The notes beneath the pieces were generated by a model that was not told where the DNA came from, ran no database searches, and was given only the letters and a program-made list of their open reading frames with translations. The position numbers and the translations under genes are program-made. DNA of 64,000 nt. Origin: an uncultured Patescibacteria group bacterium (lineage in GTDB: Bacteria > Patescibacteriota > JACMRA01). The stretch spans positions 1,106 to 65,105 of the forward strand of contig CALITC010000005.1 of NCBI GenBank assembly GCA_938041505.1, read 5' to 3'. Of this stretch, positions 520 through 44,737 are shown piece after piece (position 1 is the first letter of the stretch; every line of letters starts with the position of its first letter).

Positions 520-3012
520 CTATATATTTCGGAAATCAAAATTATCCAGGTCATCTAATTTATTTTTTTTCTTCGAGCTGGTAGGCTTTTGTTTTATGAA
601 ATCCTCCACAGTTAGGTCAGAATGGTTTGTATTCATAATGTTAAATTCATCAATGCCATCTAAATCTATAGAGCTCTGTTCGTTGAAATGGAAAGACGCT
701 ATAGCTTCTTTGGCAGCTAAGCTATGCTTACAATCAAAAATAAGCTTACCAATTTGAAAATCATCAAATTTCAGAATTTTTCGAATATTATCCTGTGCCC
801 AAGAATTAATTGAGTATTGTATGGGTTCAGTTAACGTCTGAAAGCGATGATACACTGTTAATAACTTGTTGATCTCATCTTTAGATGGAACAGGGTAAAT
901 GGTGCCAGACGCAATAAAAAAATCTTGAATATCCTGAATAGTCTTCGGTCCGTTCTCAAAGGTTAGCAATGAAGCAAGTTGTATATCTAGAGGGTAATTC
1001 CCAAATTTTTTTGTTGAGAATTGACTAAGTTTACTAAAGTCGAAACCTGGTCTAGCTTTGTGCTCTATAAGATCATCTGACAGATCTTTTTCGGTTCGTT
1101 TGGTTGTTTCAACTGTACTGTACTCCAAAAGCTCCTGGACTCTCTCAACTACTAACTCTCTATCATCAAGGTTTATGCCTGTGATACTCCCTTCGTTAAT
1201 AAAGTCTATGAGCATACCGACTCTTTCCTGCTTTCTTTTTCCAGTAAAAAACCTAAAAACTAAATAATATTTGGATCTTTTGTCATGATTATTCATCTGC
1301 GAATCAAAGTCCATTTCCATAATATCGTTAATGATTTCACTATAGAAAGATATTTCCATCTGTCGATAAAAATTCTCAAGAAATGCTTTCATATCAGCTG
1401 GGTCAGACAAATCTTGGTCTCTTAAGTCAGCCGAGGCTTTGCCGACAGGTAGGTTGGTGCCTTTGAGATTCTTGGCGCTATTAAGAATTGTAACGCTTTC
1501 CAACTCCTCTAACAATTGCACGGTCAAAGGGTTCTCAATTTCTCCACTATCTCGCAGATGAGAAATAAAATAGGTGCCACCTTTCCTGGTAAATGTGAGT
1601 TTGTGTTTGTCTTCAGGTTGTATCGATTGCTTAATTTTTGCAAATAACTTGATTATTCCAAAATCTGCTCCTGCCATCGAAATATCGTCATTAATCTCTT
1701 TTATAAACTTCAGGTCTTTACCCCAGGTTTTTTGATAGGTGTTTGTAGAGAGGTGTTCTTTGAAACGAGGAAATTTCTGTACTCTATCTCTTAAAAGAGA
1801 GTCATATAGCACGTTCTCGATCATTTTAATTTCTGCGTCAAATGTGTTGGTCCCATGCCGCTTATCATAATTAAGGGCTCTGGCTGCTGCTACGCCATCT
1901 TCCTTATAATTAAGATATAAGAATTCGATCTTTTCTTTGTTGGATAGTCCTTCACTGCCATATATATTGCTATTATTCTTTTCGAGCATCAAATCTTGCC
2001 TCAGAGAATCTTCGTTCAAGTTATTTTCTTCGTCTGTATATTTCTCCAAAACCGCGTCAATTTGTGTATCGTCAAATACCAGGACTGAGTCAAAGTAGTG
2101 CAAAAAAATATCTCTTCTAATCCCTGGTTCTGGAACTGTATATCTCTCTACGTGATTGTTCTTAATCATCGCAGCCCTCCTTTTGGGGGATTGGTTTTCC
2201 AAGTAAAAAGCTTCGATGTGTTGTATTCTAGACTGCAATAATTCTTCAACTTTTGCCAGGTATGTTGCGTCTTGTGTCCCGGTTATATTAATTGCAAATT
2301 CGTCTCCTCCAAGACGCCCTAATTGAATCTTAGGTTTTGTACCATCTGGTTGATCCACGTACAAGTCGATATTGTCTACCAAATCGGATAGAGCTTGTAA
2401 GCTTTGATGAATTAATATATCAGCGTAAGTAAGTTGGTTCTGACTTGCATTCAAAGCGTCTTGAACATAGTCTGATTTGCGTAAGTGTGCGAGGTCGAGC
2501 ACAAAAATGTTAAGGTGGGAATCTTCACGATACCCACCTTTTTTATTGCGTATTTTTTCTGATGTTGCAGAAATTAAAGCGTCTCTATTGAGAACAGCTA
2601 GTGGAGCTAGCTCAATTGGCTCTAAGGTCCCAGGATCTGTAAATAATTTTGCCTCCATACAACCCGGATCTACCAAGTTCAACAAAGAGCTATACAAATC
2701 TTTTTCAAAACCAACTAAATTATCTATTCCTTTTTCTACTAAAAACTGTAATTCTTCCGGGATATTATTCAAGGATAGTCGCTCAATTGCAGATAGCTTT
2801 TGGGCTTTTAGCTCTCTTGCCCGAGTTGTTTCACTCTGCGAAAAGTTGTGTTGTTTTTCGCCCGCAAACAACGACTCTCTTCGATTATCCCGAATAGTTT
2901 TTCTAAAATGTTTATTAAATTTTGAAGCAGGTAATATACCTTTTTCAGAAGATGGCCTACTTGTGAGAGTATCCAAGCCCATATATTTTTTGTTTTTTTG
3001 CTGATTCTTCAA
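520..3012 (-). CDS. Large (830 aa) protein with two tandem divergent GGDEF-like palm domains and a long uncharacterised C-terminal region
   Basis: First domain: FVLDLAHLRK ... ADILIH ... GRLGGDEFAINITG (intact GGDEF). Second domain: DLKFIKEINDDISMAGADFGIIKLFA ... FTRKGGTYFI (resembles DxDhFKxIND..G..GD..L ... RxGGDEF, degenerate GGTYF). No other domain recognised. Confidence 0.6.
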   Translation of the reverse strand: MKNQQKNKKYMGLDTLTSRPSSEKGILPASKFNKHFRKTIRDNRRESLFAGEKQHNFSQSETTRARELKAQKLSAIERLSLNNIPEELQFLVEKGIDNLVGFEKDLYSSLLNLVDPGCMEAKLFTDPGTLEPIELAPLAVLNRDALISATSEKIRNKKGGYREDSHLNIFVLDLAHLRKSDYVQDALNASQNQLTYADILIHQSLQALSDLVDNIDLYVDQPDGTKPKIQLGRLGGDEFAINITGTQDATYLAKVEELLQSRIQHIEAFYLENQSPKRRAAMIKNNHVERYTVPEPGIRRDIFLHYFDSVLVFDDTQIDAVLEKYTDEENNLNEDSLRQDLMLEKNNSNIYGSEGLSNKEKIEFLYLNYKEDGVAAARALNYDKRHGTNTFDAEIKMIENVLYDSLLRDRVQKFPRFKEHLSTNTYQKTWGKDLKFIKEINDDISMAGADFGIIKLFAKIKQSIQPEDKHKLTFTRKGGTYFISHLRDSGEIENPLTVQLLEELESVTILNSAKNLKGTNLPVGKASADLRDQDLSDPADMKAFLENFYRQMEISFYSEIINDIMEMDFDSQMNNHDKRSKYYLVFRFFTGKRKQERVGMLIDFINEGSITGINLDDRELVVERVQELLEYSTVETTKRTEKDLSDDLIEHKARPGFDFSKLSQFSTKKFGNYPLDIQLASLLTFENGPKTIQDIQDFFIASGTIYPVPSKDEINKLLTVYHRFQTLTEPIQYSINSWAQDNIRKILKFDDFQIGKLIFDCKHSLAAKEAIASFHFNEQSSIDLDGIDEFNIMNTNHSDLTVEDFIKQKPTSSKKKNKLDDLDNFDFRNI

Positions 3013-4089: not shown

Positions 4090-5085
4090 TTAACCAACCT
4101 TATGAGGGCTATCTCGTTTGAAATCATCTTCGACTCGAACATTATCGTCCTCGCTCAAGAACGGCCCAAGTTGAATCTCGATAAAGTACAAGTCTTTATC
4201 CAGAGACTTATTGGTTACTCGGTGGATCTCCAGCATATCAATAAAGGTACTTCTTCCAGCCGAAAAAACCTCTTTGGTTGTCTTCTCCTTCTTTCCATGA
4301 GTTGATTGCTTGGTAACTTCTCCCATACCACCTGTAAAAATCCAGTGTTCTGTGCGGTGATGGTGGTACTGTAAACTTAAGCGAACACCATCTTTTTCAT
4401 TGTAAGAAAACTCAGGGTTTTTGGCACTTGCTTTATCTATAGAGAGGACGCGGATTATTTTGACACACACCTTTTGGCCGATCTTGAGAATCTCTGCAAA
4501 GTCGCCCCAAGGCCGGCTCTCCACATTGAGTGTTTGAGATTTTTTTAAAGATTTCCAGATTGTTTCTAGATCTTGGTTTTGAACTAAATCAGGAATATTA
4601 ACAGTGTACTTAACTTCAGAATTCTGCTCTTGTTCTTTGAGGGGAACTTCGATAGGGCTGTTGATCGATTCGTAGAAAGTTATGGTATTATTACTGAAGT
4701 CTTCTGGAGAGTTTGCCGTTTGAATCTCAAGGATCTTCAAAGGTATCACCCCCTCGTTATAGATCTCATGGATTTCGTTAGGCCTGATTGTGATACTGTA
4801 ATTTTCTCTAATTCTTTCAGTGTAGACAGCACCTGTATCCGGGCATCTCCAGCGCAGAGTCATAGAGCCGCTCGCAACCACGCACGTCTTACTGCGAAGA
4901 TTGTGGGAATGAGGGTTTTGGAAGTTCTTCCCTTTTTCACTTGAAATGGTAACTAGGTTCACTTGAGAATTGGGAAGTCTCAATAAGGGAACCCACCCAC
5001 CATAAGATTTCTTTTGTAGTTCAGATATATCGTTATTCTCTTCAATATAAGCCGGGTATATGATTTTGTCTTCAGAAGTTAGCAT
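4090..5085 (-). CDS. Bicupin protein, mannose-6-phosphate isomerase type II-like
   Basis: C-terminal half RPWGDFAEIL...VKIIRV...LSLQYHHHRTEHWIFTGG matches the cupin core of type II PMI/GMP C-terminal domains. The N-terminal half has a second cupin-like HSH...EIHEI pattern. Confidence 0.6.
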   Translation of the reverse strand: MLTSEDKIIYPAYIEENNDISELQKKSYGGWVPLLRLPNSQVNLVTISSEKGKNFQNPHSHNLRSKTCVVASGSMTLRWRCPDTGAVYTERIRENYSITIRPNEIHEIYNEGVIPLKILEIQTANSPEDFSNNTITFYESINSPIEVPLKEQEQNSEVKYTVNIPDLVQNQDLETIWKSLKKSQTLNVESRPWGDFAEILKIGQKVCVKIIRVLSIDKASAKNPEFSYNEKDGVRLSLQYHHHRTEHWIFTGGMGEVTKQSTHGKKEKTTKEVFSAGRSTFIDMLEIHRVTNKSLDKDLYFIEIQLGPFLSEDDNVRVEDDFKRDSPHKVG

Positions 5086-5207
5086 AGTATAAAAATTGTT
5101 AAGATTTTAGTTGATCCACAAGGTGATACACTGAGACGCCTGTCGCATCTTGTCAAACAAAAAACCGCAGTAATATTTTACTACAGTTCAGAAACAATTT
5201 ACCAATT

Positions 5208-5612
5208 TTAAGATCGGCCATAGTCATCGCTTATTCTCAAGATATCGTCTTCACCAATATAGTTACCAGTGCTGATCTCAGCCAGGACTAATTTGATCAC
5301 ACCTGGATTTTCAAGTCGGTGAATGGTGCATTGAGGAACAAGTATGGTTTGTCCGACACATAGCGAATTTTCGCTTTCTCCTACTTGAAGTTTACAAGAT
5401 CCAGACAACACAACAAACCTTTCCGAGCGATGATAGTGCACATGCAGGCTTAGTCGATGTCCTGGATATATTTCTAATCTTTTAATCCTATAATTATCTT
5501 CCTGAAGAAGAGTGGTGAAACTCCCCCAACTTCTAATTTCTTTGTTGGTGATAATTTCGAGATTGTTTGTCTGTCCTGTGTTTCTCAAGCAGTAAATATT
5601 GCTATCATTCAT
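5208..5612 (-). CDS. Single-cupin protein, mannose-6-phosphate isomerase type II-like
   Basis: RSWGSFTTLLQEDNYRIKRLEIYPGHRLSLHVHYHRSERFVVLSG...IHRLENPG is the canonical PMI-type cupin signature. Confidence 0.65.
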   Translation of the reverse strand: MNDSNIYCLRNTGQTNNLEIITNKEIRSWGSFTTLLQEDNYRIKRLEIYPGHRLSLHVHYHRSERFVVLSGSCKLQVGESENSLCVGQTILVPQCTIHRLENPGVIKLVLAEISTGNYIGEDDILRISDDYGRS

Positions 5613-5680
5613 CGATAACCTTCCTCGACTAAATCAACCTTACACAGAGGTAGCAAATCTTTAAGTGCTGGTCAATAGTT

Positions 5681-5710
5681 TTGACGAAAATAGCAAAATA
5701 GTCCTATAGT
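5681..5710 (+). promoter_or_regulatory. Sigma70-like promoter of the valS N-terminal piece
   Basis: TTGACG (5681-5686), 18-nt spacer, TATAGT (5705-5710). The ATG at 5720 is only 9 nt downstream, implying a leaderless or near-leaderless mRNA. Confidence 0.4.
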
Positions 5711-5719
5711 ACAACTAAC

Positions 5720-7858
5720 ATGACCATGAATTCGACTTACGATCCCAAGCAATATGAAGCTAAGATCAACACCAGCTGGCAAGAACAAAAAGTAGGAGAA
5801 GTCAATGAGCAAGGCCCGGATGCTAGTAGCACTCATACAATCCTTATGCCACCTCCGAATCTCACAGGAGTGTTGCACGCGGGGCATTCGTTCCAGCACT
5901 ATCTCATGGATACTATTTCCAGAATCCATCGCCAGCAAGGAGATCTGAGTCTATGGCAACCGGGGATCGATCATGCAGGTATTCAACTCGAAGGTGTTAT
6001 AGATAAGATGTTTAAGAGTGGGGATGTTGAGCTACCAAATGAAGTAACTACGCACTCAGATTATCCAGAAGATATTGATGAACTACCCAAATTCCTCAAA
6101 ACTAATTTTAGACAATTATGGCTCGAAACCGCTTGGTCCAAAGTCAACGAATGGCGAAATACTCAGCGAGATCAAGCCACTATCTTAGGTGATACTCCAG
6201 ACTATTCTCGCAATCTATTCACGCTCGATCCGCAAGCAGTGGACATGGTCAATCATGCTTTTATAAAGTACTGGGAAGATGGTCTCATCTACAAAAAATC
6301 CTACATGATCAACTGGTCTGTAGGCTTACAAACTGCCCTCAGTGATGTCCCTGAAGATATCGGTCACGAGACGCGCAAAGACCCGTTTGTTACCATTAAA
6401 TACCAATTGGCCCTCAGCCCAAATAGCGAGTATGAACCAATCCTTACAGACGATTTTGTCAAAGTAACTACGGTTCGCCCAGAGACAATTTTCTCAGATC
6501 AATTTATCTTAATTAACGAGCATGCATCTGCAATCTCCACAGAAATACTTGAAAAGATAAAATCCAGCGAAGAGGCTTTTTTGGTATTACCGTTGTCTCA
6601 AACAGATCTCTTTGAACAGAAGATATTTTTGCCGATTAAGCTGACGGTTGATAGCCAAGAAGTTGATCCAGAATTCGGCACAGGCGCGCTCAAAGTAACC
6701 CCTCCTCACGATATTCACGACTACGAGCTCTACGAGAAATATCAGCTCAAGTCTTTTGTAATCCAGGATGGTAAGCGAGTAACGAGAGATCCGTTTGAGA
6801 GTAGTGTTCAACGAAGTGGTAAGTTATCAGCATTGGCCGGACAGTTCAAAGGTTTGACGATGTTAGAAGGGCGCAAACAAGTAACCAAAGCTTTGATCGA
6901 ACGTGAACTTATACCACACGTTGAGTCAAGCACATCTAACGACGAATCCAAGGTGGAGAAGTGGATCGCCAATTATTTCAAGACCACTCCGAAATCTGTG
7001 ACAGGGTGGGGTAATTACGAGGTGCAATGGCAATATGAGCACAATGTAACTATTTGTGAGCGAAGTAAAACCATCGTGGAACCGCTTATTAGTGAAGAGT
7101 TCTTTATTTCATATTCAAACCCAACCTCCAGAGACAACAAAACTTTGGCACGGCTTGCCACAGAAGGTATAGAAGAAACAAACTATTACCCAGCTAACTT
7201 CAAAAACCTTGCCAATAACTTCATAGATAACATCCACGACTGGTGTATCTCCAGAGATTTGGTCTGGGGGCACTCCATGCCGATCTGGTACAACTTAGAG
7301 GTTAATCCGGACAAACGATTCTACAGTAGCCAAGAAGTAGCTTCAGACACTCAAAAGGCTGCCAGTTGCAAAGTTCAAGTGGACGAACCTACGGAGCCTG
7401 GCACTTGGGTCCAAGAAACCAAAATTCTCGATACTTGGTTTTCTTCTTGTCTGTGGCCACTCTCTTCACTTAACTACCTCCAACATCAAGAACATTTCGC
7501 TAAATTCTACCCAACTGACGAGATGATAACTGCCCGCGAGATCTTCTACGCCTGGGTAGTTCGTATGACTATGCTCGGTAAATACTTTACTGGAGAAATA
7601 CCTTTTAAATCTGTAGTAATCACCCCCACAATCCAAGACGAAAAAGGTCGAAAAATGAGTAAATCACTCAAGAACGGCCTGGACCCAGTCGAGGCCATAG
7701 ACAAATTCTCCAGCGATTCCCTCCGCCTAGCCATGCTCTCAGGCATGTACCCAAATAGAAATATGAAAATGGGTGGCAGTATTGCTGACAAATCACTAGA
7801 AAAATACCGTAACTTCGGCAACAAACTCTGGAACGTAGCCAGATTCTTAAAAGACTAA
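5720..7858 (+). CDS. valS: Valyl-tRNA synthetase, N-terminal piece (Rossmann catalytic core plus CP1 editing domain)
   Basis: HIGH-type PPPNLTGVLHAGH, editing-domain TTVRPETIFSD, KMSKS. Ends ...YRNFGNKLWNVARFLKD then TAA, the point where the anticodon-binding domain normally begins. Confidence 0.9.
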   Translation: MTMNSTYDPKQYEAKINTSWQEQKVGEVNEQGPDASSTHTILMPPPNLTGVLHAGHSFQHYLMDTISRIHRQQGDLSLWQPGIDHAGIQLEGVIDKMFKSGDVELPNEVTTHSDYPEDIDELPKFLKTNFRQLWLETAWSKVNEWRNTQRDQATILGDTPDYSRNLFTLDPQAVDMVNHAFIKYWEDGLIYKKSYMINWSVGLQTALSDVPEDIGHETRKDPFVTIKYQLALSPNSEYEPILTDDFVKVTTVRPETIFSDQFILINEHASAISTEILEKIKSSEEAFLVLPLSQTDLFEQKIFLPIKLTVDSQEVDPEFGTGALKVTPPHDIHDYELYEKYQLKSFVIQDGKRVTRDPFESSVQRSGKLSALAGQFKGLTMLEGRKQVTKALIERELIPHVESSTSNDESKVEKWIANYFKTTPKSVTGWGNYEVQWQYEHNVTICERSKTIVEPLISEEFFISYSNPTSRDNKTLARLATEGIEETNYYPANFKNLANNFIDNIHDWCISRDLVWGHSMPIWYNLEVNPDKRFYSSQEVASDTQKAASCKVQVDEPTEPGTWVQETKILDTWFSSCLWPLSSLNYLQHQEHFAKFYPTDEMITAREIFYAWVVRMTMLGKYFTGEIPFKSVVITPTIQDEKGRKMSKSLKNGLDPVEAIDKFSSDSLRLAMLSGMYPNRNMKMGGSIADKSLEKYRNFGNKLWNVARFLKD

Positions 7859-7859
7859 A

Positions 7860-7890
7860 AACAGACTCATTATAAGTCTGTTGTTTGTTG
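7860..7890 (+). terminator. Hairpin terminator after valS N-terminal piece (possibly bidirectional)
   Basis: AACAGACT / AGTCTGTT 8-bp stem with a 7-nt loop, then a T-rich tract GTTTGTT. The complementary strand also has a T-rich tail, so it may serve the convergent gene 7924-9006. Confidence 0.5.
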
Positions 7891-7923
7891 GATAAGAGAT
7901 GATTTTAATCCATTTTTGTATTT

Positions 7924-9006
7924 TTAGCTATTTTTGATCATCTCCTCTATTGCTAAGTAAGCTGATTCTGAGGCTCCGTGAACTGCGATTGTATTTCCTT
8001 TTGTATTATATGCCTCTCCTGCAAAAAATATTTTATTTTCTATCGAAGAAGCTATTTTTTTTACATTTCCTTTTCTCATCGAATAACTTCCTCTGATAAA
8101 TGGTTCTTTGGACCAATTTTGAATGACATGCTTTTTATAATACTTCGAAGCCTTTCTATTGTATATTGAGTCCAGCTCTTTTAAGACAAGTTCAATGATA
8201 TTTTTATCAGATTCTTGAGATGTATATTTAGTAGCTGCAGCTCCATGAGCAAATAACCCCAAAATATTTTTGTTTGAATGTTTTCCGTAAGCTGCATCAT
8301 AGTATCCGTGATCTTGAACAAAAGGATTCTTTAGGATTGTATTTAGTTCAAGCATATCAGGGTAAAATTTGATAGAGAACTCAATAAAAATTTTTATTCC
8401 ATCACTAACAACTTCCTGATCTATCGCTTGTTGTTTGTCTGTCGAAAGGTTTGGTATAAACTCAATATATCTGTCTTGTAATAATTTTATAGGAACTGTT
8501 AACAAAACTTTGTCACATTTAAATACTTTTCCTGAATTAGATTGCACTATTACTTGAGAGGATGAATAATCAATCTTTGTTACTGGCGTATTATACAAAA
8601 AATTTTTATGTATTTCAGAGGTTATTAGTTCATCAAAACAATCAAACCATGTTTTATTGACAAATTTGTAGTCACCAATGAATTGTAAAATGAAACGAAC
8701 CCAGCTAATGTTTTTTATTGTATTGTTTTTGAATAATTGTATTTTTCTAGGAACATATTTGAACATTGTGTAATCTGGATCCTTTCTTTTTAAAAGCTTA
8801 TCTAATACTTCGGGTTTGGCTTTAATTGATGTATGAACCCACTCAGCACCTAAATCAATTGGGAAATCTGCAAAATTATTTTCCTTTTTGATTCTTCCTC
8901 CATGAGTACTTGAAGCTTCTAATACTTTAAAAGCTATACCTTTTTTTGATAAAATATGTGCTGCCGTTATGCCAGCAGCTCCGGCACCGATTATTATTAC
9001 TTTCAT
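7924..9006 (-). CDS. FAD-dependent amine oxidase-family oxidoreductase
   Basis: N-terminal dinucleotide fold MKVIIIGAGAAGITAAHILSKKGIAFKVLEASSTHGGRI and C-terminal FFAGEA...HGA motif of flavin amine oxidases. Internal ATG at 9006 chosen as the start. Confidence 0.75.
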   Translation of the reverse strand: MKVIIIGAGAAGITAAHILSKKGIAFKVLEASSTHGGRIKKENNFADFPIDLGAEWVHTSIKAKPEVLDKLLKRKDPDYTMFKYVPRKIQLFKNNTIKNISWVRFILQFIGDYKFVNKTWFDCFDELITSEIHKNFLYNTPVTKIDYSSSQVIVQSNSGKVFKCDKVLLTVPIKLLQDRYIEFIPNLSTDKQQAIDQEVVSDGIKIFIEFSIKFYPDMLELNTILKNPFVQDHGYYDAAYGKHSNKNILGLFAHGAAATKYTSQESDKNIIELVLKELDSIYNRKASKYYKKHVIQNWSKEPFIRGSYSMRKGNVKKIASSIENKIFFAGEAYNTKGNTIAVHGASESAYLAIEEMIKNS

Positions 9007-9245
9007 AATTGTTGGTTTAAGATGTAAAACTATGTTCAAGTGAATTTATAAGCATATCGAGTATACAACTATAAAAACAATGATTATGTAACATCCTTTT
9101 GTCTAATGATAATTGATCTAAATACCTATGATAATCAAAAAAGTAATGTAGAAAATTTGAATCATGAGTATTGTTTCACGACGGGGCTTTTTTATGGGTG
9201 GTGATTTATTTGCAAATATTATTATCTTTCGATATACCTAATACA

Positions 9246-9794
9246 ATGGAATCTCAAATCAAAGTTGTTCGAAGCCGAAGGCGTAGCCTAAGCTTGACTG
9301 TGGATCATGAAGGGCAGGTCATCATCAAAGCGCCAAATCATATTAAGAACGAATTCATCGTAGATTTTGTAAAGCAAAAAAAGCGCTGGATCCAAAAAAA
9401 CCTGGCCAAAGTCCAAGTGTCCAAAGAACGCGTGAAAACTATCGATCTCTCTAAAGAAAAACTAGCCATCTTAAAATCAAGATCGCAAGAAATTCTCTCA
9501 AAAGAGACTCAAGAGGTAGGTGCAAGAATGAACTTAGTGCCAGCAAATATCAAAACCACATCCGCCAGAACGTTATGGGGGTCTTGCACTGTCGACAATA
9601 TAGTCCGGCTAAACTGGCGCCTGTTGCTGGTACCGCAAGAATGCAGGGAATATGTAATCATCCACGAATTAGCTCACATAACTCACAAAAACCACTCGGG
9701 AGAATTTTGGAATTTGGTTGGTCAACATTGCACTAACTACAAAGAACTTCGACAGAAGCTCAAAGAATATTCGTATTTATTGAAGTCCACCTAG
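9246..9794 (+). CDS. YgjP-like (DUF45/M48-related) zinc metallopeptidase
   Basis: HELAHITHKNHSGEFW (HExxH plus downstream H..FW) and the overall about 180-aa size are typical of the family. ATG at 9246 is preferred to the TTG at 9171. Confidence 0.8.
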   Translation: MESQIKVVRSRRRSLSLTVDHEGQVIIKAPNHIKNEFIVDFVKQKKRWIQKNLAKVQVSKERVKTIDLSKEKLAILKSRSQEILSKETQEVGARMNLVPANIKTTSARTLWGSCTVDNIVRLNWRLLLVPQECREYVIIHELAHITHKNHSGEFWNLVGQHCTNYKELRQKLKEYSYLLKST

Positions 9795-10468
9795 GCTTTT
9801 TTGGAAGTGATATAACGAAGGATGATAGTATTAAAGAGTAGCAAGTCCTTATCCAAGCCGTCTGTATGCCGCATATGCTCAACCATCTTTTTGTAGTAGT
9901 CACCGACGGTGAACGGGGATTCCAAAAAACGCTGTGTATTTTTCAAGATTTTGATATAAGTCTCCTTATCTCTTTGCATAAGTTCGCTTCTATTCTCGAC
10001 CATAAAACGGGCAAAATCAGCAACCATCAACGGCGAGCCATCTTCCACACTCTTGATCTGCTCGAGATAAAATTCTTCAACATTACTCATCTGTTTCTTG
10101 GTAGGGGTGTTGGTAATACCGCCATAAGACTGAGGTTGACTGTCCAAATGCTTAGCAAAGTGCGTCAGAAGAACTCGGAGAGTCACCAGTAGTTCTGTTC
10201 TGTTTGGAGATGGATGGCTTTTTACTTTATCAAATAGCTCAACCCATAGCGAAGTAGCTAAGATTGTATTGGGTGTATCACATACCAAATCATAAAAATG
10301 TTCTAAAAAATCTTCATTAAGCCCATTCAACTGATGGGTTGAAGGCAGTTCCAAGAATGTCCGCAGAGCAGGGAGGATTGAGCTAGTATGCTCTACTGCA
10401 TATAGCTTCTCCAAATGAGCACGCTCTAGTGTGCTAAACCTCTCAATAGTAGGTCGATTCTGTTCCAT
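9791..10468 (-). CDS. Hypothetical protein (225 aa)
   Basis: Long ORF with a convergent 4-nt overlap with the preceding gene. No recognisable motif. Confidence 0.6.
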   Translation of the reverse strand: MEQNRPTIERFSTLERAHLEKLYAVEHTSSILPALRTFLELPSTHQLNGLNEDFLEHFYDLVCDTPNTILATSLWVELFDKVKSHPSPNRTELLVTLRVLLTHFAKHLDSQPQSYGGITNTPTKKQMSNVEEFYLEQIKSVEDGSPLMVADFARFMVENRSELMQRDKETYIKILKNTQRFLESPFTVGDYYKKMVEHMRHTDGLDKDLLLFNTIILRYITSKKA

Positions 10469-10639
10469 ACTTATATTATATCACATATTAACATTTAACA
10501 CAAATTATTTTATCTTTTCCAATTCTAATTATTAAAAATAAGTAATTGAATGTTAATGTGAGCTTGACAAAAAGTAAATACTGATCAATTAACTAGTGCA
10601 AGAATATATAAAAGAGAATATGTTAAAAGAAACAAAAAT

Positions 10640-10780
10640 ATGATAATAAGAAAATTTTTAGAATCCTTGATTAAAACATTCATAGCTGTCTTAGCTTGCT
10701 ATGCTTTCGTGTTTATTTTCAATATTGATGAAAGTAAAACCATGTTTTACACGGCGATTATTGTAACAATTATATTATAG
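10640..10780 (+). CDS. Possible small membrane protein (46 aa)
   Basis: My own reading: ATG at 10640, MIIRKFLESLIKTFIAVLACYAFVFIFNIDESKTMFYTAIIVTIIL, TAG at 10778-10780. Hydrophobic and followed by a hairpin plus T8. Confidence 0.3.
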   Translation: MIIRKFLESLIKTFIAVLACYAFVFIFNIDESKTMFYTAIIVTIIL

Positions 10781-10811
10781 TTTCGATATTTGTTCAATTT
10801 TTAGTCCATAG

Positions 10812-10838
10812 CAGCTTATAAGTCAGGCTGTTTTTTTT
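10812..10838 (+). terminator. Hairpin plus T8 terminator
   Basis: CAGCTT / AGGCTG stem (one G-U pair) with a 7-nt loop, followed by TTTTTTTT (10831-10838). Confidence 0.45.
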
Positions 10839-10865
10839 GACCAAAAATGTTTTTGTAGCTTTAAT
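10837..10865 (+). promoter_or_regulatory. Sigma70-like promoter dedicated to the valS C-terminal piece
   Basis: TTGACC (10837-10842), 17-nt spacer, TTTAAT (10860-10865). ATG at 10874 is 8 nt downstream, implying leaderless expression of the C-terminal piece. Confidence 0.4.
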
Positions 10866-10873
10866 CTTGTCAT

Positions 10874-11662
10874 ATGACCGAATTAGCACCTGCCTCGCAG
10901 TGGATTCTCCAGCGATATATAAGCCTAGAAGAGGAACTGGCCATTAACTTAGAGAAATACACTCTTGGTCATTCTATTGACGAGTTGTATAAGTTTCTCT
11001 GGGATAGTTATGCTGACTGGTACGTTGAGTACCTCAAAACAGACGACATGCAAAAAGAATTTGCCAAGCAGCTCTTTACCCAGTTTGTAATCACACTCCA
11101 TCCATACATGCCCTTTGAGACAGAGGCGTTGTGGACAGAGTTCGCTGACCAAGACACTCTGCTAGCCAAAGAATTGAAAGACGCTAATTGGAGTAAAAGC
11201 TTCGAGATCAATCCACAAGCTGTGCAGGAGTTCCAGAACATTATTGATGTCATCACGAGCCTCCGGTCCCTGCGAGGCTTGTTCGCTATTGATCCTGCCA
11301 CCAAACTCGAAGTGAACTCTAACTCCAAAGAGCTGGCAACATACAAAGAGTATCTCAATCTTTTAGGGCGCACCACAATCCAAGAAGGTGAGGAGCTATC
11401 GTATAAGCTTGAACAGGGAAGAATCAAATTCAGTATCGACATACTCAGCTATATTCCGGATGTGGAGGTAGAGAAAAATCGTACTAACAAGAATATTCAA
11501 GCCCTGGAAAAACAAATCTTTGGTCTAGACAAAAAACTAACTAATTCAAAATTCCTCGAGAATGCCACCGAAGAGGTTATCGAAGAGTCCAAAGCCAACT
11601 TGTATTCACGGAAGCAAGAACTTATGGAGCAACAACAAAAACTACAACTTTTTAACAACTAA
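10874..11662 (+). CDS. valS: Valyl-tRNA synthetase, C-terminal piece (anticodon-binding helical domain plus C-terminal coiled coil)
   Basis: Begins MTELAPASQWILQRY... with FLWDSYADWYVEYLK (class Ia F.CDWYlE..K motif). Ends in a heptad-rich coiled coil (..QALEKQIFGLDKKLTNSKFLENA..), the ValRS C-terminal signature. Confidence 0.85.
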   Translation: MTELAPASQWILQRYISLEEELAINLEKYTLGHSIDELYKFLWDSYADWYVEYLKTDDMQKEFAKQLFTQFVITLHPYMPFETEALWTEFADQDTLLAKELKDANWSKSFEINPQAVQEFQNIIDVITSLRSLRGLFAIDPATKLEVNSNSKELATYKEYLNLLGRTTIQEGEELSYKLEQGRIKFSIDILSYIPDVEVEKNRTNKNIQALEKQIFGLDKKLTNSKFLENATEEVIEESKANLYSRKQELMEQQQKLQLFNN

Positions 11663-11666
11663 ATAT

Positions 11667-11969
11667 ATGAAATTCGCCCTTTTTAACAAAATCCAAACCA
11701 ACCCCGGTCAGCGAGAATCTCTTACCAAAATCCTTCTCGATGCAGCCGCAATCTTACAAGAAAATTCTGACTGCTTGCACTACGTAATTGGCAGCGCAGA
11801 AGACCCGAGCGAGGTGTATATCTGGGAGGCTTGGACTTCAGAAGAGGCCCATGATAATTCTTTAGAAGACGAAGCTTTGTTAGACCTGATCAAAAACGCA
11901 AAACCACTAATTGCGGGCATGGAAAAAATAAAAACCCTTGAGGTAGAGGGTGGAAAAGGTATTGAGTAG
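11667..11969 (+). CDS. Antibiotic-biosynthesis-monooxygenase (ABM) domain protein
   Basis: About 100 aa, MKFALFNKIQTNPGQRESL...CLHYVIGSAEDPSEVYIWEAWTSEEAHDNS, the typical ABM/YgiN-like ferredoxin-fold pattern. ATG at 11667. Confidence 0.7.
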   Translation: MKFALFNKIQTNPGQRESLTKILLDAAAILQENSDCLHYVIGSAEDPSEVYIWEAWTSEEAHDNSLEDEALLDLIKNAKPLIAGMEKIKTLEVEGGKGIE

Positions 11970-21410: not shown

Positions 21411-21842
21411 TGGCATAACAGCCTTATCATTGTAATAATCACATGCTTTGTTGAGGTAGAGACCATTTACCATACGGGTGGTGTTGTAGTCGAAGCCTAC
21501 CAGCTCTCCGCGCAGGCGCCATTTCCAAATTTTAGCGTTATCTGCTTTACCAGTACTGACTCCTGCTTGGTTAGGCATATAACAATTGGCAATCTCACTG
21601 AGATCATTAAAGCCATCACCATCAGTATCCGGGTTCGTTGGGTCAGTATCAAAAATACCAATTTCTTCTTTATTACTGAGGCCATCTTCATCAGTATCTT
21701 CAAAAAAAGTCTTATAAGTAGCATCACTACTCCGTCCGCGGCTCCACTCTAGCCAGTATTCTTGCCTATCTACCATCGCAAAACCAGCGCTCCACACAAA
21801 GACCGCAATTATCGACGTAAGTACTACACTAATCCACTTCAT
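21399..21842 (-). CDS. Secreted protein with thrombospondin type-3-like Ca-binding repeats
   Basis: Signal peptide MKWISVVLTSIIAVFVWSAGFA. DTDEDGLSNKEEIGIFDTDPTNPDTDGDGFNDLSE matches the D.D.DG motif series. Confidence 0.6.
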   Translation of the reverse strand: MKWISVVLTSIIAVFVWSAGFAMVDRQEYWLEWSRGRSSDATYKTFFEDTDEDGLSNKEEIGIFDTDPTNPDTDGDGFNDLSEIANCYMPNQAGVSTGKADNAKIWKWRLRGELVGFDYNTTRMVNGLYLNKACDYYNDKAVMPLFR

Positions 21843-23310
21843 ACAATATATAATTATTTTCCCGTATTAGAACCACTGCCGATGTTTCGTCAAAGTCGGG
21901 TGCTATCCACCGCGACAAGTCCTGGAATACAAATACCGATCCAGTATATTTCTCATCGCAATCGAATCCCACGGCAACCTCTTCACCCTCCAAGTAGGAA
22001 TAGAAGTCAAAAACATTTTTGTATCCACGAAGTTGATAATCGATGCAAATATTTTGAATACCTCTTTCCTTCAAGGTTAAGGCGATTCGCTTGTAATCAT
22101 CCTGCTGCATTACACGCAAATCTTTGTCATATTTCCACATATAATATCTTTGTACCACATGAAGGTTCGTAGTAATGCTCAGAATCATAAGAATAATACC
22201 TGCGATGCTCGCCGCTCTCATCTGCAAAGTCGATTTTTGCAAAGTCGAGACGACAAAATTAACAACTCCAATAGCGGGTAAGAACGAAGTAATGAGCATA
22301 AAGTGTGGGTGATCTTGGGCGGTAATCCCAGAGTGAACCAGTAGATACACGAGCAATAGTACCAAAAATATTCGCTGCAAAATTCGATCGCCTTTCATAT
22401 AAAAAAGACCTATTAATGCAATCCCTGCCAGCAAAAAAACATAGCTCGAATAACTCTCAGGGAAGTAGAAACTACTGACAATATTAAACCATCCAGAGAT
22501 GTAGTTATGTATTCTAAAAGAAATCTGCTCAGCGAAAGTAAACCCGACATAGCTATCGCTAGATCCGCGCACAAAATCAAGCAAGTTAGTAGAGTTTTTA
22601 AAATTATTGCGCGCTTCAAGTAGCAAATATCCTGAAGAAGCTACAACCCAACCAAGCGCCTGCATAGTGACAGAGACCAAGAGAAATTTTCTTGGAATTG
22701 AGAAAAATAACACTAAGCTGATCACCGGCATCGCAAACAAAGCAGTCGCGTGCAAACCCATCATGATTGAAATCAGAACCCCAACAGTGAAAGAGTAGAA
22801 TATTACATAAGCCTGAGGAGTGTCTTCATGGTGAAGTCGGTACCAGAGAAGTACAAACAAAAGTAAGGGCAGGAGTATAATATTAGGATTCCAGATCGCA
22901 TTCGCCAGCCAAATATATTGGTAGCTAAAAGCAAGCAAACTCAAAGATAGTGTTGATTGCAAAAGTTTGTGCTTATCAAAAAACAAATAACAGATCCAAT
23001 AGAACATGCCGAGCACAAGCAGGTTGACGATTGCGTGCGCATAAATAGTTACTATGGGGTCCGAAGAAATCCCAGTCGTCAGATAGGTAAAATAGTAAAA
23101 GTGTGGCATTAAAAGAAAATCTCCGGTAGTCGGGACGCCGTATTCGATAGCTGAGCCCTGGTGCGCCTCAATTCCAACTAAAACATCTCGTACTTGGTCA
23201 TAACCCAAATCTATAGATGTTGCAGGCCATATAACTCGAGAAAGGAAAACAAAACCTATTATGATACCAAGTAATACCTTAACCCCATTTGTTCGAATAG
23301 TCTCAATCAT
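21829..23310 (-). CDS. Polytopic membrane protein, GT-C-fold glycosyltransferase candidate
   Basis: More than 10 predicted TM spans followed by a soluble C-terminal domain, the same architecture as ArnT/PMT-like enzymes. Internal ATG at 23310 avoids overlap with the divergent rhodanese gene. Confidence 0.5.
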   Translation of the reverse strand: MIETIRTNGVKVLLGIIIGFVFLSRVIWPATSIDLGYDQVRDVLVGIEAHQGSAIEYGVPTTGDFLLMPHFYYFTYLTTGISSDPIVTIYAHAIVNLLVLGMFYWICYLFFDKHKLLQSTLSLSLLAFSYQYIWLANAIWNPNIILLPLLLFVLLWYRLHHEDTPQAYVIFYSFTVGVLISIMMGLHATALFAMPVISLVLFFSIPRKFLLVSVTMQALGWVVASSGYLLLEARNNFKNSTNLLDFVRGSSDSYVGFTFAEQISFRIHNYISGWFNIVSSFYFPESYSSYVFLLAGIALIGLFYMKGDRILQRIFLVLLLVYLLVHSGITAQDHPHFMLITSFLPAIGVVNFVVSTLQKSTLQMRAASIAGIILMILSITTNLHVVQRYYMWKYDKDLRVMQQDDYKRIALTLKERGIQNICIDYQLRGYKNVFDFYSYLEGEEVAVGFDCDEKYTGSVFVFQDLSRWIAPDFDETSAVVLIRENNYILYEVD

Positions 23311-23392
23311 ACTGTAGAATTTTGTTAAGATTGTAATTCTGGAATAATTTTTTGTATAGACATAATTCTGGCTGTTATATATAACTATTGAT

Positions 23393-23680
23393 ATGACAGT
23401 ACAAGAATATAAACAAAAATCAACCACAGAGCTAGATATGGTCCTGCTGGACGTGCGAGAATCTCATGAACGTAAGGGTGGAAGATTTGTAGAAGGAAGT
23501 CTGCACATTCCCATGCAAGAGATAATCATGAGTCACGATATCGAAATACCAAAAGACACACATATTGTAGTTATGTGTGAGCGTGGTGGAAGAGCGGAGA
23601 TAGTTGTGGGCTACCTTCAAGCTAAAGGCTTTAGCAAAGCAGAGAAGTTGGAAGGCGGTTATACGGAATATGGCAAATAA
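23393..23680 (+). CDS. Single-domain rhodanese-like sulfurtransferase
   Basis: LLDVRESHE...HIPMQE...IVVMCERGGRAEIVVGYLQAKGF has the active-site loop C-E-R-G-G-R. Confidence 0.8.
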   Translation: MTVQEYKQKSTTELDMVLLDVRESHERKGGRFVEGSLHIPMQEIIMSHDIEIPKDTHIVVMCERGGRAEIVVGYLQAKGFSKAEKLEGGYTEYGK

Positions 23681-26245: not shown

Positions 26246-29200
26246 TTAAGCTACGTCGCCGTAAGGCTTAGTCTGGAGAGGAGAGGCTTCAACTACAGCA
26301 TGTTTTGGCGGAATATTCATAGTGCTTAATGAGTAAGTTCCATCATCGGAACGTCCTGCGTAATAGGTTTCCTTATTTGATATATTACTAGAGGAAAGAC
26401 TATCAAGCCTTCGCGGAGCCAAAGGAAGGGTGTTAAGCAAGTTTTCAATTATTTTCGCTGCTTGTTTATCTGCGATACCGTATATTGGTAAGTCAAGTTT
26501 TACAGAATTTGATGCATTATAACTGCTTTCGGTCACAGGAACAAAACCGCGATCAGCTAAAATTAGTTTATCGGTATATCCTTTCTTAGTAACAAAAGGG
26601 AGTACGTTAAGATCTATAAATTGCTGAATTATTTGGGCCTCTTCGACGGTGGCGGGCACATTTTTGAAAAGCTCTGCCGATTCTTCAACTCGTTTCTCCA
26701 TTTGTTTGGCGTTAGGGCGAATAAGGTCTTGTCGAGCAAATTCTACTTCCTCATTAACTTCATCCAACTCCTGCACTTCGGTATACTCTATCTCAGGACT
26801 CCTCTCGATAACCGTTGGCCCATTATTACCACCATATGCAATATCATTAACAAACCCGAAGCCATCAATAGGTTTGGCAGTCTCGTCTTCGCTGAGGTTT
26901 CGAAAATCAGGCTCAGAGATATTACTAGATGACTCCTTTGCTCCACTCTCTAAGCTTACTACCTGTACGTCCTCCTCAACATTATTTGGAGGGAGTTGGT
27001 TGTGTGGAGAAGATTCAAATAATTTATCGTTATTGTATTGCTGAGCTCTGTTATGAATTGATGAATTAGGTGTGCTCGTAATCTTATATTCAAAAGTCTC
27101 ATCATTATATTCAACGTTATAGCCAAACTGAGCGAGAGCTGGAATGAGCGAATTCTCAATAATTTGGTTCTCTTTTTCAGTAATTGGGCGGTCAGTATTG
27201 TTCCAGTCAGAGACGACAGTATAGGCAATTTTCTCAAACGTTTTATCATTTTTAATCATCATCTGATCCAGGACATCAATTTCTCTTCGAATACCCTCAG
27301 CTTCTCGGTATTCGCTTTCTGTCATGGTTTGCTGGTCTTTGATTTCCTGCAGTCTTTGCATATATACACCGCGAGCGTTCAAATTACTTTGTAGATTGTC
27401 CACATGTTTGTTCAGCATTTCCTCAATTTGCCGATAATCTTCTGAGATATACTCAGCTTGGATGTCCTCTTGTGGTTTGTTATTGTACGCAACTATTTCG
27501 CCCGGGTTCGATTTCACTGTGTAACTAAATTCAGCTTTACCATCGTTGTTAAGTCTGGTGTTATCTTCGATTGCAAATCCAAGTGCTGCAAGCTCTGCTT
27601 GAAAGTCCTGACTTTTCATGACTGCTTGAAAGTCCTTCATGCGAGAATATTCTTCGTAAGACTGACCTTCCACTGGATTTGATCCTGTAGGGTAATTTAA
27701 GGCTCTTTCTGTGTAACTCCTTATATTCTCTACAAGTGTATCGACATCTTGAATGGTATCCAGCCCGCCTTTGGTAGTAATGGAATTAAGTTCCTTAAGT
27801 TGCTTTTTGTAAGCAAATTCTTGTTCTGCGATGGTTGACCAGTCATTTTGATTCTTAAATGGCTTATAGTTAATATTCTTGTACCCTCCAAGTTTCTGCT
27901 CTTGCCCATCAAAGTCAACATACGACTGGGCAGAAGGGGCAGTAGTAACTAAGAACTTTTTAAGATCTTTGTCATAAGCCAGGCCAAATTGAGAATTCTG
28001 CAGCTGCGGAATGATTTTGTCTCTTATCAGGGTATTGTTATATTCAACAGCAACCAAAGATTGGTCGAGAAAGCCTTTATATTTATGGTTTATTTCCTGT
28101 AAGAGTTCCTGGTTTGCAGTATTCGAATCTGGAGCTGTTTTAATCCATTTGGGGTCTTGAATATTACTAAGTAGATTCTTGAAAAAGTTGCGCTTAGTTC
28201 TATCAAGCTGGCGAAGGTCGTTGTTATTCGCACTTAATTGATCAGATATAGTATCAAGCTGATTTTCTAACTCTGACTTCTTATCAGAATTCTGCTCAAC
28301 TGAATCTGTTGATTGCTCCTCAAAAGGATTATTGTCGGTATTTTCAGACTGCTCAATTGTAGATATCTCTTGCTTTATAATACTAATCTGTTCGTTCAAA
28401 GATTTTCCTTTATCAGAAAGAGCCTGAATCTGCGTGTTTATTTTGTCAGTGGATTTGATTGCGTCCTCAATATTATCAAAAGCTTGTGATGGGGTTGAAA
28501 ATTGCTCATTGTTCAAAATAAATTTTGGATCTTGTCGAAGTTTCTCAGTAGCTGCTTTTTTTTCCTCAGCTTCTAGCTTTGCTTTTTCACGAGCTTCTTC
28601 TTCGTATTTGGCATAAGCTTCCTTAAACTCGTCCTCACCAATACTAACATCGTAAGATGGAGAGCTTTTTGTTTGTTCAGATGGGTTTATTTTATATTTG
28701 AATAGCGGTCCTATTCCTACACTAATCCCAATATCCTCTAACTGAGGTAGAATAGAATTTGTGATTATATCTTTCGTCAATTCTTTGGACCTTTGAGGGT
28801 CTTTTTGGTAGGTAGGGTGCCTAGTTATCCATTTTGGATCGTTTATTTTCTCAACGAGCATTCGCGCAAAACTAGCTACATCTTCTTCAGACAAAGTACC
28901 TTCCAATTCTTCAATGCGGTCGTCAAATGCTTCGATATTGTCTTTAATAGTGGATATTTCTGATTGAATTTCTAGAGACTCGTTCGAATCATCTTCAAAA
29001 TCAACTAAATCTGCTTCCATCTTAACACTTTGAGATATCAAATCTTGGCGTGCGTTCTTGGCTTCGGTTATAGTGAATTGATTTCTTTTTATAAAGTCGA
29101 TTGCGGTGTCTAAATTCGCTTCTGCTAGAGCTGGGTTCGAAAACTTATTTTTGCCTAGAAGAAACTTCTTATTATCACTCTCCGACTCGACTTTGCCGTA

Positions 29201-29692
29201 TGATCGATTAAAAAGATCTTCAGAGTAATCTCTTGTATTTTTAAATGTCTTTGCTGAACGGTTTGAGATACTATTTACTTTCTTATCTTTATTTAGGGTT
29301 TCATTAAATTGATAAGCTTGTTGTTGCACACTGTCTTCACTATATTGATTTTGTGTTTTTTCAGTTGTTGGATTTGATGTTAGATTCGAATCCTGCGAAA
29401 CTTCTTTATTTCCTGATATGAAATTATAGCCACTGGTAATAAGGCCTGCGCCCCATCTGAAGATGCCCGAATCACCTAAGTCCCAACTAAACTGAAGCTT
29501 GAGTGATTCGCTATTCTTTTTAACAACCTTAGGATCACCACCTTTTTGCTTTTTTCTAATTTCTTGACCGTATTTAATATGTTTTTCTTTTTCTGCTTTT
29601 CGTTTTTCAGCTATACTTGGCTTCCTTTTCTCCCTGTTATTCTGGAGGTTGTTATTCTTACCAATTTTTTTAATTCCTTCAAAAAAAGCCAT
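26246..29692 (-). CDS. Giant (1148 aa) modular coiled-coil protein of unknown function
   Basis: Two about 200-aa repeats (FLLGKNKFSNPALAEANLDTAIDFI...DPKWITRHP...ILPQLEDIGISVGIG / FILNNEQFSTPSQAFDNIEDAI...DPKWIKTAP...IIPQLQNSQFGLAYD) plus shorter [IL]P.[LF]...G[FY] modules. Confidence 0.7.
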   Translation of the reverse strand: MAFFEGIKKIGKNNNLQNNREKRKPSIAEKRKAEKEKHIKYGQEIRKKQKGGDPKVVKKNSESLKLQFSWDLGDSGIFRWGAGLITSGYNFISGNKEVSQDSNLTSNPTTEKTQNQYSEDSVQQQAYQFNETLNKDKKVNSISNRSAKTFKNTRDYSEDLFNRSYGKVESESDNKKFLLGKNKFSNPALAEANLDTAIDFIKRNQFTITEAKNARQDLISQSVKMEADLVDFEDDSNESLEIQSEISTIKDNIEAFDDRIEELEGTLSEEDVASFARMLVEKINDPKWITRHPTYQKDPQRSKELTKDIITNSILPQLEDIGISVGIGPLFKYKINPSEQTKSSPSYDVSIGEDEFKEAYAKYEEEAREKAKLEAEEKKAATEKLRQDPKFILNNEQFSTPSQAFDNIEDAIKSTDKINTQIQALSDKGKSLNEQISIIKQEISTIEQSENTDNNPFEEQSTDSVEQNSDKKSELENQLDTISDQLSANNNDLRQLDRTKRNFFKNLLSNIQDPKWIKTAPDSNTANQELLQEINHKYKGFLDQSLVAVEYNNTLIRDKIIPQLQNSQFGLAYDKDLKKFLVTTAPSAQSYVDFDGQEQKLGGYKNINYKPFKNQNDWSTIAEQEFAYKKQLKELNSITTKGGLDTIQDVDTLVENIRSYTERALNYPTGSNPVEGQSYEEYSRMKDFQAVMKSQDFQAELAALGFAIEDNTRLNNDGKAEFSYTVKSNPGEIVAYNNKPQEDIQAEYISEDYRQIEEMLNKHVDNLQSNLNARGVYMQRLQEIKDQQTMTESEYREAEGIRREIDVLDQMMIKNDKTFEKIAYTVVSDWNNTDRPITEKENQIIENSLIPALAQFGYNVEYNDETFEYKITSTPNSSIHNRAQQYNNDKLFESSPHNQLPPNNVEEDVQVVSLESGAKESSSNISEPDFRNLSEDETAKPIDGFGFVNDIAYGGNNGPTVIERSPEIEYTEVQELDEVNEEVEFARQDLIRPNAKQMEKRVEESAELFKNVPATVEEAQIIQQFIDLNVLPFVTKKGYTDKLILADRGFVPVTESSYNASNSVKLDLPIYGIADKQAAKIIENLLNTLPLAPRRLDSLSSSNISNKETYYAGRSDDGTYSLSTMNIPPKHAVVEASPLQTKPYGDVA

Positions 29693-43800: not shown

Positions 43801-44737
43801 TAATAAACCCCAATCACGAAACAACATACGCAAATATCTTCCGAATGTAATGCGCTAGATATCCATTGATTGATCTAGGTAAACTAGTTACTAATCCATA
43901 CCGTTCTTTCAGCTCTCCAAAGACTGTTTCGACTCGACTACGTTTGTTCATCATTTTTTGTTGCCAGTGGGTGGCTAATGTCTTCATATTCTTGCGCACT
44001 GTAGTGAGTATATGATTCTGATTTATCCACGCTGCTTGAATTAGTTCTTGTCCTAGATACCCAGCGTCTCCTACCACAAGACACTTCTTCATCTCTTTTA
44101 AAAATTCTTTGAGTGGTGTCCGATCATTAACACTCCCAGTAGTGAATCGAAAACTAAGCAGCTCTCCTTGTTTGTTGCAAATGATGTGGAGCTTCATTCC
44201 GTAGAACCATCCCAAACTACTTACTCCACGACTAGAAATACTCTTGGCGGTTCTATGTTTAGTCCACCGATAGATCTTACACACTGGTAAACTAGTAGAG
44301 TCCACAAAACACACCACATCTTCTTTACTAACTAGCTGCAGGAGAGTGTGAATACTCTGCAGCAAGTACGGAGCGTACTTGTTCATTAGATTCACGAAGT
44401 TTGCATACTCAGGGAGTGTGAAGTCACTGCCATACTTCTCTTTCAAAAGTAAATGCAAGGCTTTAAGGGTCTTAATCTCGTACTTACATTGCAAGACCAC
44501 GATTGTCCCAATCTCACTTAAAGATAAAGAGGGCTTTCTCCCAACTCTTTTAGGGGAGAACAATGCTAAGTAGTCATCTAAAATACAGTAAAGAGTGACA
44601 AGATCTAAATTTTGAAGTGAAGTAGGAGTGTTTGCTAAAGAGATAGTTGAAGTCATACAACTCCACTGTCCCTCATTTCAAACAACAATTACAACCCCTA
44701 ACGGGGTTGTGTTGTATTTCATGATTCGGGTTGAATA
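43801..44737 (-). mobile_element. IS982-family insertion sequence (approximate ends)
   Basis: Single DDE transposase ORF flanked by imperfect inverted repeats: AACCCCAATCACGAAACAACA (from 43806) versus the reverse complement of ...TGTTGTATTTCATGATTCGGGTT (to 44732). No clear target duplication seen. Confidence 0.6.
43814..44656 (-). CDS. IS982-family DDE transposase
   Basis: FVDSTSLPVCKIYR...GVSSLGWFYGMKLHIICNKQGELLSFRFTTGSVNDR...VGDAGYLG...RSRVETVFGELK are the blocks characteristic of IS982 transposases. Confidence 0.85.
   Translation of the reverse strand: MTSTISLANTPTSLQNLDLVTLYCILDDYLALFSPKRVGRKPSLSLSEIGTIVVLQCKYEIKTLKALHLLLKEKYGSDFTLPEYANFVNLMNKYAPYLLQSIHTLLQLVSKEDVVCFVDSTSLPVCKIYRWTKHRTAKSISSRGVSSLGWFYGMKLHIICNKQGELLSFRFTTGSVNDRTPLKEFLKEMKKCLVVGDAGYLGQELIQAAWINQNHILTTVRKNMKTLATHWQQKMMNKRSRVETVFGELKERYGLVTSLPRSINGYLAHYIRKIFAYVVS

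Follow-up and report, generated by a model that had tools for sequence, protein, structure and literature searches.

The valS locus

We analyzed a 64-kb stretch of DNA from an uncultured Patescibacteria group bacterium (contig CALITC010000005.1; the whole stretch is called the window below) in which valS, the gene for valyl-tRNA synthetase (ValRS), is found in two pieces. ValRS is not encoded here as a single polypeptide, since the pieces are two open reading frames (ORFs) 3 kb apart, each with its own start and stop. The locus and its surroundings are laid out in Table 1. Based on the sequence evidence described below, we believe it very probable that the two genes are expressed separately and encode a naturally split, noncovalent, heterodimeric (alpha-beta) ValRS.

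Table 1. Features at and around the split valS locus, in window coordinates. L084 is the closest relative found.
Feature	Position	Strand	Basis and remarks
Promoter-like element of piece 1, TTGACG-18-TATAGT	5681..5710	+	Consensus scan; ends 9 nt before ATG
valS piece 1 (alpha), Rossmann catalytic body and CP1 editing domain	5720..7858	+	712 aa; TAA stop
Hairpin between piece 1 and the convergent amine oxidase gene	7860..7882		Scan; terminator-like on both strands
Flavin amine oxidase-like gene	7924..9039	-	Pfam; variable cargo, outside ValRS
YgjP-like (DUF45) metallopeptidase-fold gene	9171..9794	+	Pfam; likely true start 9246
Conserved hypothetical protein, 225 aa	9791..10468	-	No family match; orthologue in L084
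Hairpin with T8 run, immediately ahead of the piece 2 promoter-like element	10810..10839	+	Sequence and scan
Promoter-like element of piece 2, TTGACC-17-TTTAAT	10837..10865	+	Read in sequence; ends 8 nt before ATG
valS piece 2 (beta)	10874..11662	+	262 aa; starts MTELAPASQWILQRY
ABM-family monooxygenase-like gene	11667..11969	+	Starts 5 nt after piece 2; absent in L084

Piece 1 ends in ...NKLWNVARFLKD-TAA, with its final helix closing on WNVARF. Its HIGH motif reads HAGH (residues 53 to 56, about 5876 to 5887), and KMSKS lies at residues 645 to 649 (about 7652 to 7666). Between them are the CP1 editing motifs TVRPET (251 to 256) and GTGALKVTPPHD (320 to 331), where the class pattern is TxRPET and GTGxxKxTPxHD. 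Both motifs align with the editing region of Thermus thermophilus ValRS and are invariant across the relatives. Piece 2 contains the rest of the anticodon-binding helical bundle, including the class Ia anticodon-binding motif ADWYVEYLK at residues 47 to 55, followed by the C-terminal junction domain and the coiled-coil tRNA-binding arm.

Family models gave the same assignment. Pfam matched piece 1 to tRNA-synt_1 (E = 5e-90) and to the editing domain and piece 2 to Anticodon_1 (9e-20) and Val_tRNA-synt_C (4e-11). With NCBIfam, the valS equivalogs scored 513.8 and 466 bits on piece 1 (ileS, 202) and 129.9 bits on piece 2 (ileS, 24), and valS was a better match for the pieces than the ileS, leuS, or metS models. 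The curated valS cutoff of 704 bits is reached by neither piece alone, and in public databases the pieces therefore go by vague names, for example “class I tRNA ligase family protein.” Because they fall below the cutoff, automated annotation as well as completeness and marker-gene pipelines can call valS missing, partial, or duplicated in these Patescibacteria.

A preliminary description of this DNA, made from its letters without database searches, had named two separately started and terminated valS pieces 3 kb apart, the first with HIGH, CP1 editing, and KMSKS and a hairpin terminator behind it, the second with ADWYVEYLK and the ValRS coiled-coil tail. We found both ORFs where it had placed them. 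The motif positions and Pfam matches bear out the content of each, and the hairpin was recovered by the scan. We also considered an alternative genetic code in which UGA is read as an amino acid, known from some Gracilibacteria. It has no bearing on the split, since the stop codon of piece 1 is TAA and some long ORFs do end in TGA.

The break point, selection, and expression signals

We aligned the pieces to T. thermophilus ValRS (1GAX) to locate the break. Piece 1 runs to about residue 589 to 591 and piece 2 continues from about 600, its aligned part covering residues 618 to 850. Of the 860 positions in the NCBIfam valS equivalog NF004349, 2 to 577 are matched by piece 1 and 591 to 859 by piece 2, two complementary stretches without overlap. 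Close relatives with a full-length enzyme have 12 to 40 aa of nonconserved linker between the anchors NFGNKxWNxARF and LSxASxWIL. All three comparisons indicate that the break touches the linker alone and that no conserved block is lost, as the preliminary description had supposed. Together, the two genes amount to one complete synthetase, with nothing duplicated or lost.

For local secondary structure at the junction, the sole use made of it, we built a structure model of the window pieces joined head to tail and aligned with 30 full-length relatives. The model has moderate scores (mean predicted local distance difference test score [pLDDT], 68.8; predicted template modeling score, 0.49), and its best structural match is ValRS 1GAX (E = 1.3e-35). 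It places a helix at 686 to 709, an 8-residue coil at 710 to 717 (pLDDT of <50 at 712 to 715), and a second helix at 718 to 740. The break is thus predicted to lie in a loop between two long helices, the first of which remains on piece 1. An earlier claim that valS is split exactly at a domain boundary holds for the sequence-defined Pfam domains; structurally, the model puts the break in the loop between the two helices.

Split inteins and trans-spliced introns are known ways to express split genes, and either a split intein or trans-splicing of a group I or II intron could rejoin the halves into a single-chain ValRS. However, piece 1 stops 3 residues past the conserved helix, and piece 2 starts 4 to 5 residues before LxPASxWI. 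Such short ends leave no room for intein halves, and there is neither an N-intein at the end of piece 1 nor a C-intein at the start of piece 2. Rfam, introns and ribozymes included, had no match across the whole window, nor were tRNA genes found there, and the gap is filled by ordinary genes on both strands. We consider the chance of such rejoining to be close to nil.

The closest relative, L084, comes from a different sample and shares 86% protein identity in piece 1 and 75% in piece 2, with the same layout except for one gene in the gap. The proportions of differing nonsynonymous (pN) and synonymous (pS) sites against L084 were 0.082 and 0.805 for piece 1 (pN/pS of about 0.10) and 0.172 and 0.791 for piece 2 (about 0.22). 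Raw pN and pS are reported in place of dN/dS, which is not computable because the synonymous sites are saturated (pS of 0.79 to 0.81). These values point to purifying selection on both valS pieces.

We also asked whether the locus could be an artifact in which the 7.9- to 10.9-kb block was wrongly joined into valS. The metagenomic source and the composition shifts across the block would be compatible with a chimera. However, an independently assembled Logan contig (L001) has the identical arrangement, L084 repeats the layout at the identities given above, and many long contigs, one of them a 1.27-Mb chromosome, carry split layouts. Given the layouts of L001 and L084, the split is therefore not a misassembly, and we assign a chimera only a vanishing probability.

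A recent 3-kb insertion could instead have broken valS, leaving the pieces as decaying pseudogene fragments while another valS copy functions. At about 0.30, against about 0.43, the G+C content of the amine oxidase gene is clearly low, and L084 has a different gene in its place, so part of the gap is recently exchanged cargo; in addition, the part of the genome covered here is the 64-kb window. On the other hand, the same break is found in relatives at only 41 to 50% identity, the pN of both pieces is far below the saturated pS, and the catalytic, editing, and anticodon-binding motifs are all intact. The promoter-like elements are conserved as well. Around the gap, we found only short AT-rich chance repeats and no terminal repeats like those of insertion sequences, and Pfam detected no transposase in the gap. 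The fragments are intact and selected, unlike those of a gene disrupted by a transposon. No further valS-like sequence was present in the 64-kb window, and a pattern scan of the split-carrying GTDB genomes, which divergent copies would escape, found no second valS locus. We regard a recent disruption as largely refuted and highly improbable.

Each piece is preceded by a promoter-like element (Table 1). For piece 2, TTGACC lies at 10837 to 10842 and TTTAAT at 10860 to 10865, separated by a 17-nt spacer. This site had been noted in the preliminary description; it is present in the sequence and kept in L084. Conservation with L084 extends over roughly 45 nt ahead of each piece and takes in both hexamers and their spacing, despite the saturated synonymous sites. 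Upstream of these conserved nucleotides at piece 2, the DNA is not alignable with L084. Neither piece has a Shine-Dalgarno sequence ahead of it. Since the -10 box ends 8 to 9 nt before the ATG and a Shine-Dalgarno sequence is absent, the mRNAs of the valS pieces are probably leaderless or have very short leaders. Both pieces also share a TTTGAC[GC]AAAA -35-like box, a -10-like box, and an ATGACC start (5681 to 5725 and 10837 to 10879), and these matching boxes and starts perhaps reflect common regulation of the two pieces.

Split and contiguous valS among relatives

Searching with piece 2 returned 84 clusters, about 75 of them stand-alone proteins of 259 to 298 aa with 41 to 75% identity. All of the stand-alone homologues start within a few residues of L-x-P-A-S-x-W-I. 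Among the best 120 piece 1 homologues, 66 lack the anticodon-binding domain, every one ending 0 to 18 residues past WNVARF, and the other 54 are full length. In an exhaustive search of 50%-identity representatives, stand-alone and C-terminal matches were mixed at comparable identity.

We then scanned GTDB species genomes, which yielded 21 close relatives labeled Gracilibacteria, Peregrinibacteria, SR1, or Patescibacteria group. A contiguous full-length valS was present in L010, L012, L014, L019, L020, L022, and L023, and a split valS with intervening genes was present in L011, L021, and L024. The remaining 11 of the 21 had piece 2 and no piece 1 in the available flank. Overall, splits with intervening genes were found in the window, L084, L002/L024, L011, L021, and L085. 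On the 1.27-Mb chromosome of L002/L024 (OY969926.1), the order is piece 1, ygjP, four more genes, and piece 2, while three unrelated genes separate the pieces in L085. Piece 2 of L089 is on the opposite strand, 3.4 kb off, and on one 361-kb contig the pieces are about 150 kb apart. The linked relatives examined have 1.8 to 5.3 kb of variable cargo in the gap, and with 1.8 kb as the smallest gap the pieces are never directly adjacent. A synteny check in relatives, proposed in the preliminary description, thus yielded the same split break in dozens of diverged lineages alongside contiguous valS in others.

Several observations concern individual records. L012 (JAOZKL010000017.1) has an in-frame TAG at 5808 to 5810 in an otherwise full-length valS, replacing the GAG of an invariant glutamate (E454 of piece 1). 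Sequencing error, recoding, or a nonsense mutation could account for it. The GTDB records L009, L011, L021, and L023, which carry this valS, are titled Limisphaerales, Bdellovibrionales, or Saccharibacteria and are probably mislabeled or misbinned metagenome-assembled genomes. The catalytic piece of the clade also carries in-frame insertions of whole enzyme domains at discrete sites (P0098, P0107, P0111, P0127, P0128, P0165, and others). Numbered as in piece 1 of the window, the inserts are either one or two alpha/beta-hydrolase domains or a single NUDIX domain at about 586/593, HAD or GNAT domains at about 465/473, and a DUF559 endonuclease-like domain at about 542/547. N-terminal fusions to Ham1/ITPase or HAD domains also occur. 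These inserted and fused domains are found in split and full-length ValRS alike.

To follow the split and fused states, we used a crude method, a neighbor-joining tree of 125 sequences computed on 625 trimmed columns of the catalytic core. The tree mixes split and full-length forms, and parsimony required 9 changes of state (7 to 11 over 100 bootstrap replicates). The split clade of the window had 100% support, and its sister relation to a full-length clade had 87%. Because the states are mixed and at least 7 changes are needed, we provisionally propose that either fission recurred at a permissive linker or an old fission was repeatedly reversed by deletion of the intervening DNA.

The ygjP-like gene bears on this choice. 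It lies directly downstream of piece 1 in the window (9171 to 9794), L084 (6417 to 6965), L002 (4945 to 5490), and L021 (2791 to 3336), that is, in three diverged split lineages (window/L084, L002/L024, and L021), and it was not beside full-length valS genes at the loci examined. This hints, provisionally, at one old insertion event, and the gene might be left over from the original insertion or else serve as a functional partner. Against a single insertion, other split loci lack ygjP. The idea that it accompanies every split was rejected, as the gene is missing from L011, L085, L087, and L089 as well as from the full-length loci.

The other genes of the gap are less constant. L084 carries a gene for a Rieske protein and a 57-aa ORF (4958 to 6131) in place of the amine oxidase gene of the window; the slot beside piece 1 therefore exchanges cargo. 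The 225-aa hypothetical protein has a pN of 0.18 and a pS of 0.73 against its L084 orthologue, and an AT-rich spacer is also present between the valS pieces. PADLOC matches among the gap genes were marginal and partial, and a defense-island character was rejected. In L011 (5028 to 5780 and 5977 to 6525) and L085 (12849 to 13412), the gaps contain a PIN-toxin/antitoxin pair and a 182- to 187-aa protein. This protein, with a CGGYR...SES motif, is common to both and lies just upstream of piece 2 in L011.

Outside the gap, the ABM-family gene is possibly cotranscribed with piece 2. Upstream of valS are two neighboring genes with cupin or mannose-6-phosphate isomerase C-terminal domains (4090 to 5085 and 5208 to 5612, both on the minus strand), and the 331-aa cupin-type protein is 94% identical to that of L084 (pN of 0.034). 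The only DDE transposase gene in the window (DDE_Tnp_1_3, E = 4.5e-40; 43814 to 44656, minus strand) lies 33 kb away; mobile elements are thus part of this genome, though none is at valS. Large ORFs at 520 to 3012 (830 aa), 21829 to 23427 (532 aa), and 26246 to 29692 (minus strand, 1,148 aa) had no Pfam match at an E value of 1e-4.

A probable two-subunit ValRS and its known counterparts

In our model, each valS gene would have its own promoter and yield its own protein. The alpha protein would carry out valine activation, transfer, and CP1 editing and would end with a long helix (...NKLWNVARF) that is the first helix of the bundle. The rest of the anticodon-binding bundle would come from the beta protein, together with the junction domain and a coiled-coil arm to grip tRNA-Val. 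The two would then assemble noncovalently, probably by completing the helical bundle in trans, and so rebuild a normal ValRS. Such a locus may have originated when foreign genes were inserted in the linker or when the locus was rearranged there. The preliminary description had preferred a functional two-subunit ValRS to a decaying pseudogene, and the common break point, purifying selection, conserved promoter-like elements, and the unlinked or opposite-strand pieces of some relatives support that preference. Its reservation about a very recent insertion can be dropped, as the break is common to dozens of diverged lineages. Conservation across the clade, together with pN values far below pS, indicates that both genes have been kept by selection across species.

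The pieces could also act as independent proteins, with piece 1 as a minimal ValRS without anticodon reading and piece 2 as a free tRNA-binding or chaperone factor or a protein with some other role. Free-standing synthetase domains with separate functions are common (PMC5388404), mini-synthetases without tRNA-binding modules are reported (PMC10036535), and our pieces are separately promoted and in some relatives unlinked. However, piece 2 retains ValRS-specific anticodon-binding and coiled-coil signatures at ValRS-like conservation. The first helix of its bundle sits on piece 1, which argues for a shared fold, and the very same sequences are fused into one chain in close relatives. We therefore think that independent roles are unlikely.

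Some points weigh against an alpha-beta ValRS. We infer, rather than directly observe, that the two pieces associate and are active, and this applies to their physical association, to the interface of a bundle formed in trans, and to the dependence of tRNA-Val charging on piece 2. The -10 hexamer of piece 2, TTTAAT, does not have the canonical A at position 2, and because that position is a T, the site was not listed by a simple promoter scan. Promoter-like matches across the region were no denser in the scan than chance, so the promoter argument rests on conservation and not on the match to consensus. The structure model is only moderate and was built on an artificial concatenation, and it cannot show assembly in trans. 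Finally, the search of the window genome for a second valS covered 64 kb only.

A broader claim can be made for the clade. By this claim, a large Gracilibacteria/Peregrinibacteria-like branch of Patescibacteria would hold the first natural alpha-beta ValRS, whose modules came apart and were joined again, always at one linker, no fewer than 7 times, with pieces up to 150 kb apart and a catalytic piece that gained varied enzyme domains. We see the case for and against this as evenly balanced. If true, the clade provides a natural test of how aminoacyl-tRNA synthetases are assembled from modules. The many natural split and fused pairs offer material for studies of gene fission and fusion, and the locus would add a second bacterial class Ia case, beside the leucyl-tRNA synthetase (LeuRS) of Aquifex, for testing how catalysis and tRNA recognition cooperate in trans.

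In a survey of more than 2,500 genomes, ValRS was among the most stable synthetases (PMC5388404). Our full-text literature searches found no description of a split ValRS. Naturally split synthetases are already known (Aquifex LeuRS and the alanyl-tRNA synthetase [AlaRS] of Nanoarchaeum), and a split ValRS is apparently undescribed. Compared to canonical ValRS (T. thermophilus 1GAX; NF004349), the window proteins have the same domains, order, and motifs, and 1GAX is the best structural match; the difference is that the canonical enzyme is one polypeptide, whereas the window chain is broken at the linker past the WNVARF helix.

The nearest characterized analogue is the LeuRS of Aquifex aeolicus, which is an alpha-beta heterodimer (Xu et al. 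2002, as cited in PMC2377443). Both are class Ia enzymes from two genes, and the LeuRS products assemble into an active enzyme, while in ValRS the assembly is proposed. In LeuRS, the catalytic and editing body lies mostly in one subunit and the tRNA-binding C-terminal part in the other. The two systems differ in amino acid specificity (Leu versus Val) and in the extent of the split, which in ValRS spans a large Patescibacteria clade with pieces that are often unlinked. They also differ in the break itself, which in LeuRS we take to cut the catalytic region itself, close to the leucine-specific domain and ahead of KMSKS, and in ValRS comes after KMSKS, in the linker to the anticodon-binding bundle.

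Nanoarchaeum equitans, a tiny, reduced, host-dependent organism with which the preliminary description had drawn a comparison, has split genes that include AlaRS. Here too, two ORFs, each expressed on its own, encode an essential translation enzyme, and their products presumably reassemble. That enzyme is archaeal, of class II, and broken at another position, whereas the ValRS case is bacterial and has split and fused states among close relatives. Lastly, Schimmel and coworkers reportedly complemented fragments of Escherichia coli MetRS and IleRS, and class I synthetases cut in surface loops are said to be able to reassemble noncovalently into active enzymes. Those were laboratory constructs, while the ValRS split is natural, selected, and clade-wide.

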